This document shows, one piece after another, positions 16,658-22,782 of a stretch of DNA of 64,000 bases. The position numbers and the translations under genes are program-made. This DNA is from Escherichia phage P479. The DNA lies in sequence record MW269952.1; one strand, written 5' to 3'. Within the stretch, counting starts at the first letter, position 1. Each line of letters opens with the position of its first letter. The notes under the pieces were generated by a model. It had not been told where the DNA came from. It ran no database searches and worked only from the letters and a program-made list of their open reading frames with translations.

Positions 16658-16954
16658 ATGTACTACGCATATGTGCTGGTTCACAAAGATAAAGATGGTT
16701 TTGAACGCCCATTGGAGTATGATGGAAAGGTTACCTTATACACCACAAAAGCGGGCGCAGAATATGAACTTGCCAACTATTCATATACTACAAACCGCTA
16801 TTTACGCATGGGACGTATTGAAACACGGTATACTCCCAGAAAATGGTGGTTTGATAAGCGGGAAACAAAAACTGTTTTTCCTACTGAAGAACACGCACGA
16901 GAATTGAAATTAGTTTTAGATACTTTATATGTTAAGCGAGTAAAATTGGCATGA
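16658..16954 (+). CDS. hypothetical protein (98 aa)
   Basis: ATG 16658 directly after GTG; overlaps dda start. Confidence 0.5.
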   Translation: MYYAYVLVHKDKDGFERPLEYDGKVTLYTTKAGAEYELANYSYTTNRYLRMGRIETRYTPRKWWFDKRETKTVFPTEEHARELKLVLDTLYVKRVKLA

Positions 16955-18279
16955 TTAAATTTGAAGACTTGAACACAGGACAAAAAGAAGCTTTTGATTA
17001 TATCACTGAAGCTATTCAGCGACGTTCAGGGGAATGTATCACTCTGAATGGTCCAGCTGGTACAGGTAAAACTACTCTGACAAAATTTGTCATTGACCAT
17101 TTAGTGCGTAATGGAGTTATGGGAATTGTGCTTGCTGCACCAACTCACCAGGCGAAAAAAGTTTTATCTAAATTGTCTGGTCAAACAGCGAATACAATCC
17201 ATAGTATCTTGAAGATTAACCCGACCACATATGAAGACCAAAACGTTTTTGAACAGCGCGAAATGCCTGATATGTCAAAATGTAATGTTCTGGTTTGTGA
17301 TGAAGCGAGTATGTATGACGGGTCTCTGTTTAAGATTATTCTTAACTCTGTTCCTGAATGGTGTACTATTCTTGGGATTGGTGATATGCACCAGCTGCAG
17401 CCAGTTGACCCAGGAAGCACACAACAAAAGATAAGCCCATTCTTTACGCATCCTAAGTTCAAACAGATTCATCTGACTGAGGTCATGCGAAGCAATGCTC
17501 CTATCATTGAAGTGGCGACAGAAATTCGTAATGGTGGCTGGTTCCGTGATTGTATGTATGAAGGTCATGGCGTACAGGGGTTTACCTCACAAACCGCTTT
17601 AAAGGATTTCATGATAAACTATTTCGGTATTGTAAAAGATGCTGATATGTTGATGGAAAACCGGATGTATGCTTACACGAATAAATCAGTTGAAAAACTG
17701 AACAATATTATTCGTCGCAAGCTCTATGAAACGGATAAAGCATTTTTACCGTATGAAGTCCTGGTTATGCAAGAGCCGCACATGAAAGAGCTGGAATTTG
17801 AAGGCAAGAAATTCAGCGAAACCATTTTTAATAATGGTCAGTTGGTTCGCATCAAGGATTGCAAATACACTTCCACCATTCTCCGTTGTAAAGGGGAATC
17901 ACACCAGTTAGTGATTAATTACTGGGACCTGGAAGTTGAGTCAATTGATGAAGATGAAGAATATCAGGTTGACCGCATCAAAGTTTTACCAGAAGACCAG
18001 CAACCAAAATTCCAGGCATATCTGGCTAAAGTTGCTGACACATACAAACAGATGAAAGCCGCTGGTAAACGTCCAGAGTGGAAAGACTTCTGGAAAGCTC
18101 GCCGGACCTTCTTGAAAGTTCGTGCTCTTCCGGTCAGTACAATCCACAAGGCCCAGGGCGTTTCAGTGGACAAAGCATTCATCTATACTCCATGCATCCA
18201 TATGGCCGAAGCTTCATTAGCGAGCCAGTTGGCTTATGTTGGAATCACACGAGCGAGGTACGACGCATATTATGTATAA
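16951..18279 (+). CDS. dda: Dda DNA helicase (SF1)
   Basis: 442 aa; Walker A GPAGTGKTT; T4 Dda is 439 aa. Confidence 0.9.
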   Translation: MIKFEDLNTGQKEAFDYITEAIQRRSGECITLNGPAGTGKTTLTKFVIDHLVRNGVMGIVLAAPTHQAKKVLSKLSGQTANTIHSILKINPTTYEDQNVFEQREMPDMSKCNVLVCDEASMYDGSLFKIILNSVPEWCTILGIGDMHQLQPVDPGSTQQKISPFFTHPKFKQIHLTEVMRSNAPIIEVATEIRNGGWFRDCMYEGHGVQGFTSQTALKDFMINYFGIVKDADMLMENRMYAYTNKSVEKLNNIIRRKLYETDKAFLPYEVLVMQEPHMKELEFEGKKFSETIFNNGQLVRIKDCKYTSTILRCKGESHQLVINYWDLEVESIDEDEEYQVDRIKVLPEDQQPKFQAYLAKVADTYKQMKAAGKRPEWKDFWKARRTFLKVRALPVSTIHKAQGVSVDKAFIYTPCIHMAEASLASQLAYVGITRARYDAYYV

Positions 18280-18511
18280 GGTACATAAAGAAGATTTAGA
18301 TAATCTTATCTATGGTATTCAGGACGCGGTTGAATTTTTCGAAGATAATCCGACTATCGTCGTGCAGGGTAATTACGTTTTACTGGAACTGAATCTTATT
18401 CGGAAACGTATGGCCGCGATTGAATATTTTAACAATGAAGAGCCAGGGATTTTTATCTCCGACTATGTTGCTGGCGAAATTCAGAAATTAAAAGAGATGT
18501 GCGATGATTGA
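18272..18511 (+). CDS. hypothetical protein (79 aa)
   Basis: In-frame ATG overlapping dda stop. Confidence 0.45.
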   Translation: MYKVHKEDLDNLIYGIQDAVEFFEDNPTIVVQGNYVLLELNLIRKRMAAIEYFNNEEPGIFISDYVAGEIQKLKEMCDD

Positions 18512-19187
18512 TGCTATTATTGACTTTGAAACTCTGGGAAACGGCTCGAAGGGAGCCGTTATTGACCTGGCTCTGATTACATTCGAATCTGACCCTGCTA
18601 TTGTAGAATCATTCGAAACTCTGGTTAATCGCGGCAAACGCATTAAGTTCAGCCTTGAATATCAAAAAGGTAAGCGGCTGTTCGACACAACAACTATGGG
18701 TTGGTGGAAAAAGCAATCAGCCGAAGCACGTGTTAACCTGGTCCCTTCTGCGCAAGATGTTGATACTTTAACTGGTATCCAACAGGCGATTGACTATCTG
18801 AATGGTAATGGAATTAACAAATATGAAAGCCTTATGTGGTGTCGTGGAATGTCTTTTGACTTCCCGTTATTTGTTGACCTTATCCGTGACCTGCAGCGCA
18901 ATGAGGGCATTCCCGAGCGTGAATTGAATACCTATAACCTGGAGCCGGTTGTATTCTGGAACCAGCGAGATATCAGAACCGCAATCGAAGCCCTGTCACT
19001 CGTCCGTAAAATGTGTGAAACTCCATTACCAAAGGGGACTTTAGATGGATTCGTGGCACACGATTCGGTGCATGACTGCGCGAAAGATATTTTGATGTTG
19101 AAGTATGCCCAGCGCTATGCTCTTGGTTTAGATGAAGTTCCTTCCGAAGAAGATGCAGACCCATTATCTTTGCCGAAAAAACGATAA
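18504..19187 (+). CDS. dexA: DexA exonuclease A
   Basis: 227 aa (same as T4 DexA); DnaQ-like DFETLG start; follows dda. Confidence 0.85.
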   Translation: MIDAIIDFETLGNGSKGAVIDLALITFESDPAIVESFETLVNRGKRIKFSLEYQKGKRLFDTTTMGWWKKQSAEARVNLVPSAQDVDTLTGIQQAIDYLNGNGINKYESLMWCRGMSFDFPLFVDLIRDLQRNEGIPERELNTYNLEPVVFWNQRDIRTAIEALSLVRKMCETPLPKGTLDGFVAHDSVHDCAKDILMLKYAQRYALGLDEVPSEEDADPLSLPKKR

Positions 19188-19254
19188 AAAGTAGTGTACA
19201 AGGCCAATGGAAAGAGACATAATCATCTCATCAACTACTGATGAGGATAACAAA
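19187..19254 (+). promoter_or_regulatory. early promoter cassette
   Basis: AAAAGTAGTGTACA; CATAAT 19218-19223; box CATCAACTACTGATGAGGATAACAAAATG. Confidence 0.6.
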
Positions 19255-19512
19255 ATGATTACTTCTTTTGAAATTGGCCAACAATATGAAATGTCTGCTC
19301 TTCAAGCTGCTGAAGCAGGTCTGACTAAAGCGTTTGAATGCGCATTTACAAATATTCGTGGTAAAATCTTTACTGTCAATAAAATTGCGGTATATGATAA
19401 AGAAACAGACATGAACAAAGGCATCTACCTGAACGTGTCAAATGCAAAAGGTCGTCGTGAAATTATGGTTGTACAACCTAATCAACTGGCGATGTTCAAT
19501 AAGGTTGCATAA
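19255..19512 (+). CDS. hypothetical protein (85 aa)
   Basis: ATG after conserved leader; track start 19207 lies inside the promoter cassette. Confidence 0.5.
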   Translation: MITSFEIGQQYEMSALQAAEAGLTKAFECAFTNIRGKIFTVNKIAVYDKETDMNKGIYLNVSNAKGRREIMVVQPNQLAMFNKVA

Positions 19513-20267
19513 TGAAACCAGAATTTATTGACTTTGATGTTGTAAGTATGTATGTTCGCCCAATTAAACCATTAAAACTTGAGAAACAAAATATGACTAT
19601 TGAAATTAACAAAACTTATCAACTGATTGAACCTATTATTCAAAACGCAGCTATGGTTTCTGGGTATAATACTCTGGCTGATGCTTTAGGTGAAGGTGAA
19701 TTTATTGTTGAAACTTTTGTAAAAAGTAACTGGTTTGATAAAGCATATATTCTGCATGCACGTCGCCTTGATACAAATGAAGTAGAAAAAATTATGGTTT
19801 ATGAAGCTGAGATTGAACTCTTCAAAGAAGTTGAAGAAACTCCTATCAAAGTTGGTAAAACCTACCAGCTTATTGAAGATGATAGTCAATTTGGAAAGAC
19901 TGTCGCAATGCATGCTGGTTGGCGGGTACTGAAAGGTATTTTTGGATTTACTCCATTTACCGTTAAAACAGTTAAGTACCACAATCACCAAAGCATCTTT
20001 GAATTTACTGCAGTCAATGAATCAGGTGACAATCTTGAAGCTATCCTTTATCCGCGTGAATCTGTACTGCTGGAAGAAGTTAGCGAACTGGGCGACCCTA
20101 TTGACTTGCTATGTAAACCAGTTCAAATCAAACGCCCATTTAACAGTTCCATTTGTGGTTGGGTAACAGACCAGTGGATTGAAGATGGTGTTGAACTCCT
20201 GAACGTTGTCCATGCTGGTGAATTTACTGTTGTACCACGTTCCATGGTTGTTGAAATTTTTAATTAA
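19512..20267 (+). CDS. MotB-related protein with internal duplication (251 aa)
   Basis: C-terminus GWVTDQWIEDGVELLNVVHAGEFTVVP matches the C-terminus of the next ORF; internal repeat KTYQLIE. Confidence 0.5.
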   Translation: MKPEFIDFDVVSMYVRPIKPLKLEKQNMTIEINKTYQLIEPIIQNAAMVSGYNTLADALGEGEFIVETFVKSNWFDKAYILHARRLDTNEVEKIMVYEAEIELFKEVEETPIKVGKTYQLIEDDSQFGKTVAMHAGWRVLKGIFGFTPFTVKTVKYHNHQSIFEFTAVNESGDNLEAILYPRESVLLEEVSELGDPIDLLCKPVQIKRPFNSSICGWVTDQWIEDGVELLNVVHAGEFTVVPRSMVVEIFN

Positions 20268-20274
20268 ATTTAAA

Positions 20275-20318
20275 GTGTACAAACTCATGGGGTCAGAGTA
20301 TAATGACCCCACTGGAGA
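20275..20318 (+). promoter_or_regulatory. early promoter plus stem-loop cassette (44-bp repeat copy 1)
   Basis: AGTGTACAAACTCATGGGGTCAGAGTATAATGACCCCACTGGAG; -10 in hairpin loop. Confidence 0.65.
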
Positions 20319-20346
20319 ATAAACTTATTAATCAAGAGAGAAAATT

Positions 20347-20838
20347 ATGAAAGTTGAAGAAGGTGATATTGTACGTGTTTCTAAAGAATCTCGTTCTAAA
20401 GCTGCTGGTCGTTTTGTTGAGGTTGTGAGTCTTCGCACTAATTTAGTAGGTGGAATTAAAGAAGTTAAAGTGCGTATTATTCCTAAACATGGTCATGCTG
20501 AAACTCAATTGGCTTATGTACATCCTAAATTCCTGGAATCAACTGAATTTACTGGATACATCGCTCCAGTAGTTGAAGAAGTTGAAACCATCGACCAGTC
20601 TCATGTTGGGGTTGATTTTAAATGGAAATTAGGTAAAGGTGTCTTTTTCGTTTCACCTAAACCGTTTGAATACAATTGCATGTACGGTCCGACTTATGAA
20701 ACCACTAGTATGTCCGGTTACATCACCGACCAGTGGGTTGAAGAAGGTGTTAAGCTGTATAATATCGTGTTCCTTGGAACCTTTAAAGTAGTTCCTGAGA
20801 GCTTTATCGTTGAGTATGCCGATATTCATTTTGCCTAA
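20347..20838 (+). CDS. motB: MotB-like protein
   Basis: 163 aa (T4 MotB 162 aa); N-terminal KOW-like GDIVRV; position between dexA and 39. Confidence 0.5.
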   Translation: MKVEEGDIVRVSKESRSKAAGRFVEVVSLRTNLVGGIKEVKVRIIPKHGHAETQLAYVHPKFLESTEFTGYIAPVVEEVETIDQSHVGVDFKWKLGKGVFFVSPKPFEYNCMYGPTYETTSMSGYITDQWVEEGVKLYNIVFLGTFKVVPESFIVEYADIHFA

Positions 20839-20839
20839 A

Positions 20840-20884
20840 TTATAAAATAATGATAGGGTTTGCCCTATCATTGAGGAGAATATT
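20840..20884 (+). promoter_or_regulatory. stem-loop plus RBS cassette
   Basis: TGATAGGGtttgCCCTATCA (8-bp stem) then TTGAGGAGAATATTATG. Confidence 0.45.
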
Positions 20885-21109
20885 ATGTTTAATGAAGATT
20901 GTGTGACCACTTCCCTGACCGCTGAAGAGTTTTGGGAAACCGCTGAAAGTGATAAAGTGATTGTGAAGAAAAACATCAATGAATTTCTTTGTACCACTGA
21001 TATCATTTATGTGTATGCGTATGAAGGTGCGGAATTACCTAGCTATGCATTGTTCCGCGAAGAATCAGAAGATGGTACAGATTTCTGGAAGGAGACTTAT
21101 AATGTCTAA
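20885..21109 (+). CDS. hypothetical acidic protein (74 aa)
   Basis: ORF after stem-loop and RBS GAGGAGAATATTATG. Confidence 0.5.
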   Translation: MFNEDCVTTSLTAEEFWETAESDKVIVKKNINEFLCTTDIIYVYAYEGAELPSYALFREESEDGTDFWKETYNV

Positions 21110-21473
21110 ATTTGAAACTGACAAGTGGTATTATTTTAAAGATAATGTTGCTGAAAGCAGATTCCGTTTGTTATGCACAGATAATGATAATATAGCTGAT
21201 GCTATAATCAATGGCGAGGGATTTAGACCAGTCAGAATTGAAGGCGGTGATGTGTATAAAATGGAATTATCAACTGGTGAATTTGTGAGCCTATTCATAA
21301 AGGAAGATGAATTCCGTTTCTTTGAAGAAGAAAAAGATGGCGATACTGAAGATGAATGCGAAGACGCAGCTCCATCTGAGCCAAGCGAATTCCCTTTGAC
21401 TAAAATCACCATTTCTAATAACTCTGAAGCCTGGACCGTTTACCAGATGTTGAAAGCACACTTTAAGGAATAA
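21102..21473 (+). CDS. hypothetical protein with acidic tail (123 aa)
   Basis: In-frame ATG at 21102 overlapping previous stop. Confidence 0.5.
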   Translation: MSKFETDKWYYFKDNVAESRFRLLCTDNDNIADAIINGEGFRPVRIEGGDVYKMELSTGEFVSLFIKEDEFRFFEEEKDGDTEDECEDAAPSEPSEFPLTKITISNNSEAWTVYQMLKAHFKE

Positions 21474-21981: not shown

Positions 21982-22782
21982 ATGATGATTAATGAAGTAT
22001 TCGGGATAATAAAAAATAAATTTCCTGATTATATTCCACCATCGAGTGGAAATAGTGGGATTTATATAATTTATAATTTAATATCTCAAAAATATTATAT
22101 AGGAAGTTCAAATGATTTTCATCGTAGAATTGCCACGCATTTTCGGAATTTATCCAAAGGTGTTGGCATAAACAGCCATTTACAGTTTGCATATGACAAA
22201 TACGGTAAAGAATCATTTGTATGCGAACTAATAGAAAATATAGAAGTTTATAATAAAAAATATTTCTTGAAAAGAGAAAGTTTCTGGATAACTGAATTAA
22301 ATTCTATCAAAAACGGTTATAATATAACGTTGGCGGATTTTGGTGGTGACACAATGTCCAATCATCCAAGAAAAGCGGAAATTAATTTACTTAAAGGCGA
22401 AGCCGTTAAAAAACGGAATAAACTGTTAGATAAAACCGAATATAATAGAATATATGGAACTGGTGTTAAAAGAAAGCCATACCCCGATGATTTTGGTTAT
22501 AATGTCTCCCTGCGTAAAGCAGGCGAAAATCATCATTTCTTTGGCAAACATCTTTCTCTTGAACACAAAGATAAATTATCAAAATTATTCTCTGGTGGTA
22601 AAAATCCCGAGGCTAAAACGTACTCTATAAATGGGGTCATATTCACAACCCGAAAAGAAGCCGCCGAAGTTCTTGGTATTAGTTATCCTACATTACGAAA
22701 ACGCTGCAAATCCGATGATGTAAAATGGTCCAGTTGGAAATGTTTAGGTTATACTAAAAATTTAGAGGTCAAAAATGATTAA
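21982..22782 (+). CDS. GIY-YIG homing endonuclease (Seg-like)
   Basis: GIYIIYNLISQKYYIGSS; AT-rich; basic C-terminal DNA-binding region; overlaps start of gene 39 by 8 nt. Confidence 0.8.
   Translation: MMINEVFGIIKNKFPDYIPPSSGNSGIYIIYNLISQKYYIGSSNDFHRRIATHFRNLSKGVGINSHLQFAYDKYGKESFVCELIENIEVYNKKYFLKRESFWITELNSIKNGYNITLADFGGDTMSNHPRKAEINLLKGEAVKKRNKLLDKTEYNRIYGTGVKRKPYPDDFGYNVSLRKAGENHHFFGKHLSLEHKDKLSKLFSGGKNPEAKTYSINGVIFTTRKEAAEVLGISYPTLRKRCKSDDVKWSSWKCLGYTKNLEVKND

Follow-up and report, generated by a model that had tools for sequence, protein, structure and literature searches.

The motB.1 and motB genes, an early gene pair on the + strand of the 64,000-nucleotide stretch of Escherichia phage P479 DNA analyzed here (MW269952.1; hereafter, the window), encode partial paralogs that are related through a shared C-terminal module, M, only. 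In MotB, a disordered linker joins an N-terminal basic KOW-like barrel to M, and MotB.1 is made up, from the N- to the C-terminus, of a leader motif (L), two tandem barrel domains (A and B), and M. The explanation that accounts for the pair overall, and that we hold with considerable confidence, is that both proteins are chains of SH3-like barrels ending in M. The MotB.1 of the window is a member of the MotB.1 family with a variant architecture, that is, with two tandem barrels rather than the single LSm/SH3-like five-stranded N-terminal barrel of the class.

The motB.1-motB locus

The window genome is that of a Gaprivervirus, an SP18-like, T4-like phage. The pair occupies a syntenic position (dexA, 101-aa ORF, motB.1, motB, cef, goF, 39.2, 39.1, gene 39), with a gene order corresponding to that of SP18 and T4. 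The motB.1 gene (19512..20267, + strand) encodes a 251-aa protein of 28.8 kDa and pI 4.8 that matches phrog_2333 (E=2e-78), the MotB.1 family, which comprises categories 2 and 4 of Son 2021; the ortholog of this protein in SP18 is annotated motB.1, the name of the gene that immediately precedes motB in T4-like phages. The motB.1 stop at 20267 is followed by the motB start at 20347, and between the two genes lies an early-promoter-like site on the + strand (TGTACA, 17 nt, TATAAT; 20276-20304), which is the best promoter match of the region (10/12 positions). It overlaps a hairpin (arms 20289-20295 and 20304-20310, + strand; both elements together, 20276..20310), the loop of which holds most of the -10 hexamer of the putative early promoter. 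The hairpin is conserved in the alignment of relatives (T4, SP18, RZ, VR26, and a metagenomic relative), and the changes in its stem are compensatory (GGGGTCA/TGACCCC vs GGGACCA/TGGTCCC).

Upstream of motB.1, the list of open reading frames contains a 101-aa ORF (19207..19512, + strand) whose TAA stop overlaps the motB.1 ATG (TAATG) and which also has an 85-aa form with a start at Met17 (nt 19255). The product matches phrog_17795, a family without assigned function, and a search of 5.8 billion proteins yielded no more than 6 clusters, none below 91% identity and all from Gaprivervirus-type phages; this ORF is a genus-restricted orphan gene. The 247-250 aa class of MotB.1 proteins contains an extra N-terminal domain, D0. 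None of the domains A, B, D0, and M proved to be related to the 101-aa ORF, whose candidacy as a further barrel matching D0 was rejected (Smith-Waterman z=-0.7; hhalign probability <1%). In T4, the upstream neighbor of motB.1 is motB.2, which is unrelated to the L-A part of the window protein: MotB.2 was considered as a relative of this part and discarded (z=0.9, no similarity). On the other side of the pair, the window carries a GoF-like gene (21102-21473) in a family where the number of barrels varies, the protein comprising 123 aa in the window vs 239 aa in contig L004.

MotB and its KOW-like barrel

An earlier note on this DNA identified the ORF at 20347-20838 as MotB by size and position, and the identification is correct. 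The 163-aa, 18.4-kDa product of this + strand gene matches Pfam PF17613 across residues 2-162 of 163 (173.2 bits, cut-off 25, E=4.9e-51) as well as phrog_1671 (E=4e-66), and the gene occupies the syntenic slot in the dexA-to-gene-39 early cluster, between motB.1 and cef. The window protein is the ortholog of T4 MotB, with 53% identity from end to end (E=3e-57), and the two agree in their KOW-like N-terminal domain, linker, and C-terminal domain, in their slot (motB.1-motB-cef), and in the promoter and hairpin upstream. The MotB variants of JS98-like phages (183-190 aa) contain a 20-residue linker insert (VESHDGYVCESNDIRGVVAQD) that the window MotB lacks; compared with the L region of MotB.1, this insert ('HDGYVCESND') yields a marginal signal (z=1.6-2.5).

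The N-terminal KOW/SH3-like barrel of MotB (residues 1-65; 20347..20541, + strand) is basic (pI 9.8), with family medians of pI 10.1 and net charge +6. The KOW profile (Pfam PF00467) did not match the window MotB at E up to 1, which leaves it below the gathering score, whereas two distant relatives, P0256 and P0269, pass the KOW cut-off of 22.3 (24.8 and 22.9 bits, respectively). Given that the relatives match and the window protein itself does not, the description of MotB as KOW-like, also made in the earlier note, is valid for the fold and lineage of the N-terminal barrel, not for a profile match of the window sequence alone.

The shared C-terminal module

Alignment of the two ORFs, which the earlier note proposed as a check, puts the C-terminal similarity far above chance. 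BLASTP aligns residues 211-248 of MotB.1 (nt 20142-20255) with residues 119-156 of MotB (nt 20701-20814), with 20/38 identical (53%, E=1e-12); the Smith-Waterman score is at z=24.7 (2000 shuffles), and profile-profile comparison (hhalign) gives a probability of 99.4% and E=2e-21 over 50 columns. The shared stretch, initially put at about 35 residues, is real but somewhat longer. The Pfam motB family matches MotB.1 at residues 211-247 only, and the N-terminal parts of the two proteins are unrelated (z=0.7), such that the 251-aa protein indeed shares only its C-terminal part with MotB, and the suggested duplication of motB is borne out for M but not for the whole gene, the remainder of which is unrelated.

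Module M consists of about 50-57 residues and begins with 'DLLCKPV' in MotB.1 (residues 195-251; 20094..20264, + strand) and with 'FKWKLGKGV' in MotB, where it is contained in the C-terminal domain (residues 88-163; 20608..20835, + strand) and holds an insert of 11-13 residues. AlphaFold2 (AF2) predicts five strands in the MotB.1 module, from residue 203 to 248, and five in the MotB C-terminal domain (98-110, 116-132, 135-142, 145-150, 154-157; pLDDT about 90). The invariant residues of MotB are F91, K92, D128, W130, E132, G134, and K136-N139, and the invariant motif of M (TDQW-E-(D/E)-G) combines acidic with aromatic character. Compared with four relatives, MotB.1 shows dN/dS of 0.10-0.46, below 1 in every segment and lowest in M (0.07-0.11), all values being based on few substitutions; thus, all parts of MotB.1 are under purifying selection, M most strongly.

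Two homologous barrels in MotB.1

Between L and M, MotB.1 contains the acidic barrel A (residues 28-110; 19593..19841, + strand), a predicted SH3/LSm-like five-stranded domain supported by AF2 and tblastn, and its diverged copy B (residues 111-194; 19842..20093, + strand), supported by alignment, AF2, and tblastn. The earlier note had recognized an internal duplication from two occurrences of KTYQLIE, and the repeat extends over the whole of both domains: residues 29-109 are collinear with 112-193, with 28/83 identical (34%), at Smith-Waterman z=10.5 (Gumbel p~1e-6) and with an hhalign probability of 96.4% (E=1e-9, 78 columns). In the AF2 models, the order of secondary-structure elements is identical in A (strands 35-38, 63-71, 78-85, 91-97, 104-106; helix 46-59) and B (strands 117-120, 149-157, 162-169, 174-179, 187-190; helix 131-144), and each domain has a net charge of -4. 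A and B are homologous domains. In the same models, confidence is low for L (pLDDT <50) and for the arrangement of the domains relative to each other (pTM 0.41-0.46).

The possibility that these similarities result from chance, low complexity, or an ORF artifact, such as a sequencing error that joined two genes, can be dismissed almost entirely. A single identical heptapeptide does contribute much of the visible A/B signal, and a frameshift artifact is known in the motB.1 family, in the T4 reference; however, after removal of the KTYQLIE heptad, the A-B signal persists (z=4.3, p~0.002), all statistics lie far beyond chance, and dozens of Gapriverviruses sequenced independently of each other carry the 250-251 aa motB.1 ORF in intact form, with dN/dS below 1 in every segment. 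At the DNA level, the two KTYQLIE codon runs match at 17/21 nt; recent DNA-level duplication or gene conversion was considered and rejected, the longest motB.1/motB repeat being 41 nt at 78% identity.

The two barrels differ in distribution. By tblastn, A was found in 386 phage records and is the barrel type of the MotB.1 class of about 180 aa, whereas B was found in only 33 phage records, all of the matches listed being of Gaprivervirus type; the A+B tandem is restricted to Gapriverviruses (33 phage records). Because A is 60-65% identical to the A domains of other genera, A and B must have diverged long before the Gaprivervirus radiation. Residues 28-109 of MotB.1 weakly match phrog_622, the GoF-like family (E=0.0022), but A and B are nearer to each other, by the identity and hhalign values above, than either is to the GoF-like barrel.

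An LSm/SH3-like barrel in the N-terminal domain of MotB.1 has been published, as has the LSm-like N-terminal domain common to MotB.1, GoF, and Frd.2 (Kim 2025, PMC12152347). T4 GoF and Frd.2 contain a small five-stranded barrel like A and B, with other C-terminal domains in place of M and with marginal sequence likeness to A and B. The best structural matches come from proteins with tandem Tudor (53BP1) or tandem KOW domains (Spt5 KOW6-7), likewise strings of SH3-like barrels, with a likeness at the fold level only (8-18% identity). A sequence search of the PDB with MotB found nothing, and the sole PDB match of MotB.1 (1v30; E=0.039, 48 residues across the A/B junction) was judged to be due to chance. 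Neither Smith-Waterman nor hhalign detected a sequence relationship between MotB's own domains and A or B; a common SH3-like ancestry, if any, can be seen only in the fold.

Family architectures and the origin of L-A-B-M

The MotB/MotB.1 paralogy, the common C-terminal domain, and a proposed duplication have been reported previously (Son 2021, PMC7827196). We observed eight architectures in this family, in line with the earlier suggestion of domain shuffling around a shared C-terminal module, which turns out to be extensive. Intact T4 MotB.1 (P39415) consists of an LSm/SH3-like barrel followed by the module 'DPTDLLC...GWVTDQWIEDGVELLNVVHAG' and aligns end-to-end with residues 112-251 (B+M) of the window protein (47% identity, E=3e-35); the 111 additional N-terminal residues of the latter, L and barrel A, are absent from T4. 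The class of about 180 aa, present in many Tequatrovirus, Mosigvirus, and Dhakavirus members and probably equivalent to 'Category 4' of Son 2021, has L, an A-type barrel, and M in the same order as the window protein but lacks barrel B, which in the window lies between A and M. By its domain content, the window MotB.1 unites two published classes of MotB.1: the L-A-M class of about 180 aa and the T4-type B-M class of 143 aa.

The L motif (residues 5-24, FIDFDVVSMYVRPIKPLKLE; 19524..19583, + strand) matches the linkers of Karamvirus-like MotB; aligned with those of P0251 and P0258, the leader by itself reaches z=9.1-9.5 (p~4e-6). In the single MotB of these phages (Edwardsiella PEi20, Enterobacter CIP9 and IME523, Kosakonia 305), L is directly fused to a MotB.1-type M, an arrangement that equals the window MotB.1 minus A+B; when A+B were removed in silico, L+M aligned across the junction with a gap of at most 1 residue. 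The Karamvirus-like protein has an N-terminal KOW-like barrel and no LSm-like barrel, and is encoded by one gene per genome as opposed to the pair in the window; such single-gene KOW-L-M forms occur in T4-like phages of Edwardsiella, Enterobacter, Kosakonia, and Klebsiella. With L and M contiguous in these proteins, the A+B tandem lies within an L-M unit that is older. [quoted passage not shown] An exhaustive profile search also retrieved long proteins (P0259, P0260, P0263-P0267; 361-1544 aa), which were treated as spurious on account of several short matches of about 20-25 residues each; P0264, the sole long match inspected by sequence, is a tandem-repeat protein (NIVNFITSRYGEEGKKLYRSWW).

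How the tandem itself arose can be envisaged in two ways. The L-A-B-M form could have originated by recombination or fusion of an A-type with a B-type motB.1, an origin to which we assign roughly even chances when set against an old tandem followed by losses. Under the latter scenario, which we consider somewhat improbable, L-A-B-M would be the ancestral MotB.1, the product of an old in situ barrel duplication, and L-A-M, L-B-M, and B-M would be its deletion derivatives. The border motifs could have mediated such deletions, given that GKTYQL(I/V)E opens and F/LxEV(E/S)E closes both A and B. The junction of the L-B-M protein P0095 is located exactly at GKTYQL, and in the L-A-M proteins of about 180 aa, A ends with 'EVEEQ' directly before 'DPTDLL'. 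An L-B-M form is encoded on a syntenic metagenomic contig. The family also contains deletion remnants, namely, P0261, a 43-aa protein in which the N-terminus of MotB.2 is joined to the last 26 residues of M, and the 29-aa peptide reported in RB69 (Son 2021, PMC7827196), and the closer similarity of A and B to each other than to the GoF-like barrel is compatible with duplication in place. However, the tandem is found in a single genus, whereas single-barrel forms are spread across many genera. The divergence of A and B before the Gaprivervirus radiation fits both models, but under an old tandem, losses must have occurred several times independently.

Possible functions

T4 MotB binds DNA tightly and non-specifically, co-purifies with H-NS/StpA, and is toxic when overexpressed (PMC6070864, PMC7827196); it alters the H-NS footprint, and MotB.1 has the same C-terminal domain (PMC7827196, PMC6070864). 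In T4, knockouts of motB.1 are without phenotype, and its deletion leaves the burst normal (PMC12152347). By transfer from T4 MotB, at 53% identity, the window MotB would perturb H-NS/StpA-DNA complexes early in infection, and we infer DNA contact for its basic KOW-like domain.

The assignment of M is more tentative. Since M is under the strongest constraint and is acidic, in contrast to the basic KOW-like domain, it might be a protein-docking module rather than a DNA binder, and it is possible, although we would not call it probable, that it serves both proteins as a common protein-protein docking or dimerization module; this role is proposed on the basis of conservation and charge, and local patches can still enable an acidic domain to bind nucleic acids. 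M would then carry different N-terminal effector barrels to one common partner. The competing view, which we find doubtful, is that M is a DNA-binding domain of the OB-fold type and MotB.1 a second DNA binder that competes or cooperates with MotB. HHpred placed residues 69-149 of MotB in a cold-shock-like OB fold (PMC7827196), conservation in both proteins is highest in M, and the predicted all-beta five-stranded structure of M is of a type for which nucleic acid binding is common. The charge distribution argues against this view and disfavors a DNA-binding role of the shared module, for which the earlier note had proposed assays: both families have an acidic M (median pI 4.3 in MotB.1 and, for the C-terminal domain, 5.1 in MotB; 4.5 in the MotB.1 of the window), the invariant motif of M is acidic as well, as is, at pI 4.8, the whole of MotB.1, and the basic charge of MotB resides in the KOW-like domain, which is not shared (median net +6).

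Extending the docking reading, L+M could form one conserved docking or dimerization unit into which KOW, A, B, the T4-type barrel, or D0 are plugged; MotB and MotB.1 might pair via M, or might compete via M for the same host partner, for example, the H-NS/StpA-DNA complex, with MotB.1 acting as a modulator of MotB and the two-barrel form as a bivalent adaptor derived from the fused classes. We regard this combined scheme as speculative and rather improbable.

The T4 reference motB.1 allele bears on the published experiments. A comparison across GenBank showed that a 1-nt insertion truncates the protein in the T4 reference, and none of the other T4 records among the matches listed carries it. 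T4 MotB.1 comprises 143 aa in resequenced T4 (expected mass, about 16.4 kDa) vs 119 aa as annotated in the reference; when the two alleles were sought in IMG/VR by exact pattern, the matches numbered 0 and 1, too few to be informative. Published MotB.1 constructs were based on NC_000866.4, with a 13.8 kDa product, and therefore probably lack the last 26 or so residues of M, a loss that could explain negative MotB.1 results.

The relationship between MotB and MotB.1 was already published, and the novelty of the present case is modest, namely, two tandem barrels in place of one. New are the restriction of the A+B tandem to Gapriverviruses, the L and M flanks of this tandem, and the charge contrast between M and the KOW-like domain. 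These are details of relevance to workers on the early 'non-essential' genes of T4 and ordinary biology otherwise. A natural MotB.1 that joins both classes of N-terminal domains indicates that the barrels are interchangeable cassettes, and the L motif together with the charge pattern suggests that M may be the protein-docking unit and the KOW-like domain the DNA binder.

The motB.1-motB locus

The 251-aa ORF at 19512–20267 and the 163-aa ORF at 20347–20838 are motB.1 and motB, a previously described gene pair of an established phage genus. The region shares 96.4% DNA identity with Shigella phage SP18 and 91–96% with the remaining Gapriverviruses among the matches listed, and in SP18 the annotated gene order is the same, with the two ORFs named motB.1 and motB. 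On the + strand throughout, this order is dda (16951–18279), a small ORF (18236–18511), dexA (18504–19187), a 101-aa ORF (19207–19512), motB.1, motB, cef (20885–21109) and a GoF-like gene (21102–21473), 3′ of which lie 39.2, 39.1, a GIY-YIG endonuclease gene and gene 39. It agrees with the T4 order dexA, motB.2, motB.1, motB, cef, goF, although the slot of the 101-aa ORF is occupied in T4 by the unrelated motB.2. The 101-aa ORF, coupled to motB.1 by a TAATG overlap, is an orphan: the search recovered just 6 clusters, near-identical and all of Gaprivervirus-type origin; some of its relatives are annotated as 85-aa proteins starting at Met17.

The motB.1-motB spacer contains, within 20276–20310, the best-scoring early promoter-like site of the region (TGTACA, 17 nt, TATAAT), upstream of motB. 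A conserved 7-bp hairpin in this spacer holds most of the –10 hexamer in its loop and shows compensatory changes in the stem among P479, VR26, T4 and a metagenomic relative. A 10-bp hairpin, AATGATAGGG-TTTG-CCCTATCATT (+ strand, 20849–20872), follows the motB stop and precedes the cef ribosome-binding site; the scan classed it as terminator-like for the minus strand alone. Further downstream, the 266-aa ORF between 39.1 and gene 39 (21982–22782), the stop of which overlaps the start of gene 39, contains GIY-YIG, NUMOD3 and I-TevI DNA-binding domains and is thus a Seg/Tev-like homing endonuclease. SP18 has a different, 132-aa ORF in this slot, which suggests a mobile insertion.

The C-terminal module shared by MotB and MotB.1

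The 163-aa ORF was taken for MotB in an earlier note, and this identification holds: the protein matches Pfam PF17613 over its full length (173 bits) and is 53% identical to T4 MotB. The 251-aa protein matches phrog_2333 over its full length, the Pfam motB match being confined to residues 211–247. Pairwise alignment, the check proposed in the earlier note, shows that the C-terminal similarity is significant: BLASTP yields a sole alignment, of residues 211–248 of MotB.1 with 119–156 of MotB (53% identity, E=1e-12), and the Smith-Waterman score has z=24.7 (2000 shuffles). The N-terminal parts show no relationship in the same comparison (z=0.7), so that, as the note had claimed, the sharing is exclusively C-terminal. 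Comparison of family alignments (A1, 54 MotB sequences; A2, 40 MotB.1 sequences) with hhalign lengthens the module, denoted M, to 50 columns (probability 99.4%, E=2e-21), starting back at ‘LCKPVQI’ in MotB.1 and ‘LGKGVFF’ in MotB, with an insertion of 11–13 residues in MotB.

Tandem barrels in MotB.1

The internal duplication noticed in the 251-aa ORF consists of two domains of about 83 residues, A (28–110) and B (111–194), with 28/83 identities (z=10.5, p~1e-6); the similarity persists when the KTYQLIE heptad is left out (z=4.3) and extends over 78 columns in hhalign (E=1e-9). At the DNA level, no recent repeat is seen. AlphaFold2 with A2 predicts three beta domains in MotB.1 (mean pLDDT 75.8), with an identical order of elements in A and B (strand, helix, three strands, short helix, strand) and five strands in M (203–248); residues 1–27 are not confidently placed. 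A Foldseek search of viral models returned MotB.1 relatives, T4 P39415 among them. For MotB (mean pLDDT 77.7), an N-terminal barrel (8–58), a disordered linker (67–84) and a confident C-terminal beta domain (98–157, pLDDT about 90) are predicted. The description of MotB as KOW-like therefore stands at the level of the predicted fold and fails by sequence, with no Pfam KOW match in the P479 protein itself; two distant relatives, P0256 and P0269, match above the gathering score.

A module map of the family

An exhaustive profile search of 1.84 billion representatives, with alignment A3 of the shared module as query, yielded no more than 36 clusters; the credible members are without exception small proteins (43–251 aa), and wherever checked they have T4-like-phage relatives. 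Denoting the KOW-like barrel K, the LSm/SH3-like barrel S and the ‘IDxDVxSMYxxPxxPL’ motif L, the architectures are K-M (MotB), K-L-M (encoded by the only motB gene in T4-like phages of Edwardsiella, Enterobacter, Kosakonia and Klebsiella), S(T4-type)-M (T4 MotB.1), S(T4-type)-L-M (the family protein P0255), L-A-M (a ~180-aa class), L-B-M (P0095, from a metagenomic contig with conserved synteny), D0-L-A-M (a class of 247–250 aa) and L-A-B-M (MotB.1 of P479). Domain A is present in 386 phage records; B was detected in only 33, Gaprivervirus-type in all those listed.

Intact T4 MotB.1 aligns end to end with residues 112–251 (B+M; 47% identity, E=3e-35), and the ~180-aa class is the counterpart of residues 1–110 (L+A), so that MotB.1 of P479 is the union of both published MotB.1 classes. 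With A and B (25–194) excised in silico, the joined L and M can be aligned through to the K-L-M protein P0251 with a gap of at most 1 residue; in the other L-bearing proteins tested, the junction or its vicinity shows 3-residue deletions or longer insertions. L alone matches the linkers of L-bearing proteins (z=9, p~4e-6). Together, these matches indicate that the barrels sit inside an older L-M unit. The observation in the earlier note is confirmed, and its interpretation, shuffling around a C-terminal module, is supported.

We slightly favor an origin of the L-A-B-M tandem by fusion or recombination of A-type and B-type motB.1 genes because the tandem is limited to one genus. A serious alternative is a tandem of older date, later reduced by deletions between the motifs repeated at the domain borders (GKTYQL, xEVxE): the L-B-M junction is located exactly at GKTYQL, and deletion remnants exist. 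One such remnant is P0261, a 43-aa mini-ORF in which the first ~17 residues of a T4-type MotB.2 are fused to the last 26 of the MotB.1 module; a comparable 29-aa peptide has been reported in RB69 (PMC7827196).

A linker insert of 20 residues, VESHDGYVCESNDIRGVVAQD, is present in some MotB proteins and absent from others, the P479 protein (linker residues ~70–80) being the short form; ‘DGYV’ of the insert marginally resembles the segment preceding L in K-L-M proteins. A related metagenomic phage (L004, 1880–2599) encodes a GoF-like protein of 239 aa, compared with 123 in P479; the two have the same C-terminal tail, and the extra length is at the N-terminus, so that barrel number may be variable among GoF proteins too.

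The T4 reference allele of motB.1

The T4 reference (NC_000866.4, AF158101.6) carries a unique single additional G in motB.1, ATTGGAAGATGG versus ATTGAAGATGG in relatives (about 2850–2940 of the T4 comparison locus L003), which shifts the frame after ‘WVTDQWI’ and results in the annotated 119-aa, 13.8 kDa MotB.1; read in the +1 frame, the remainder of M is unbroken. Among the matches listed, the additional G is missing from 13 other records (260 nt vs 261 nt), of which 11 are T4, T4T among them, and two are RB55 and RB59; these would encode a 143-aa MotB.1 with a complete C-terminal module; MotB.1 is annotated at this length in MT984581 (111–542 of locus L006). Given that Kim et al. built their MotB.1 constructs from NC_000866.4 and reported a 13.8 kDa product (PMC12152347), the protein they assayed was probably truncated.

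Constraint, charge and possible functions

Every part of MotB.1 is constrained, M the most and B the least: dN/dS (Nei-Gojobori, P479 vs VR7 or VR26; small counts) is 0.07–0.11 for M, about 0.2 for A and 0.26–0.41 for B. Much of the higher value for B comes from a hypervariable patch at residues 121–134 (19872–19913), which reads IEDDSQFGKTVAMHA in P479 and VGYGDFDNTNALNA in RZ and VR26.

The N-terminal domain of MotB is basic (family median pI 10.1, net +6; 9.8 in P479) and its C-terminal domain acidic (pI about 5). In MotB.1 (pI 4.8 overall), M (pI about 4.3–4.5) and both A and B (each net –4 or lower) are acidic. T4 MotB is a tight, non-specific DNA binder that co-purifies with H-NS/StpA and changes H-NS footprints (PMC7827196, PMC6070864). 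Both these properties and the improved fitness due to MotB are shown for T4 only. Tentatively, the basic KOW-like barrel of MotB could be the part contacting DNA, and M, which is acidic and highly conserved, could together with L be a common protein-docking or dimerization module carrying different effector barrels. Somewhat less likely is the rival reading that M itself binds DNA, as implied by the OB-fold idea of 2021 and suggested in the earlier note.

Son et al. predicted a KOW N-terminal and an OB-like C-terminal domain in MotB, described MotB.1, encoded upstream of motB, as having the MotB C-terminal domain in common and a different N-terminal domain, proposed a duplication for the pair and grouped relatives into categories by N-terminal domain (PMC7827196); deletion of motB.1 in T4 left the burst normal (PMC12152347). 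The core of the finding is thus already explained by the published C-terminal sharing and proposed duplication. Within the literature searched, MotB.1 appears only in Son 2021 (PMC7827196) and Kim 2025 (PMC12152347), and tandem barrels in neither. What can be added is the module map of the family and, as a minor new variant, the two-barrel, nested architecture of MotB.1.
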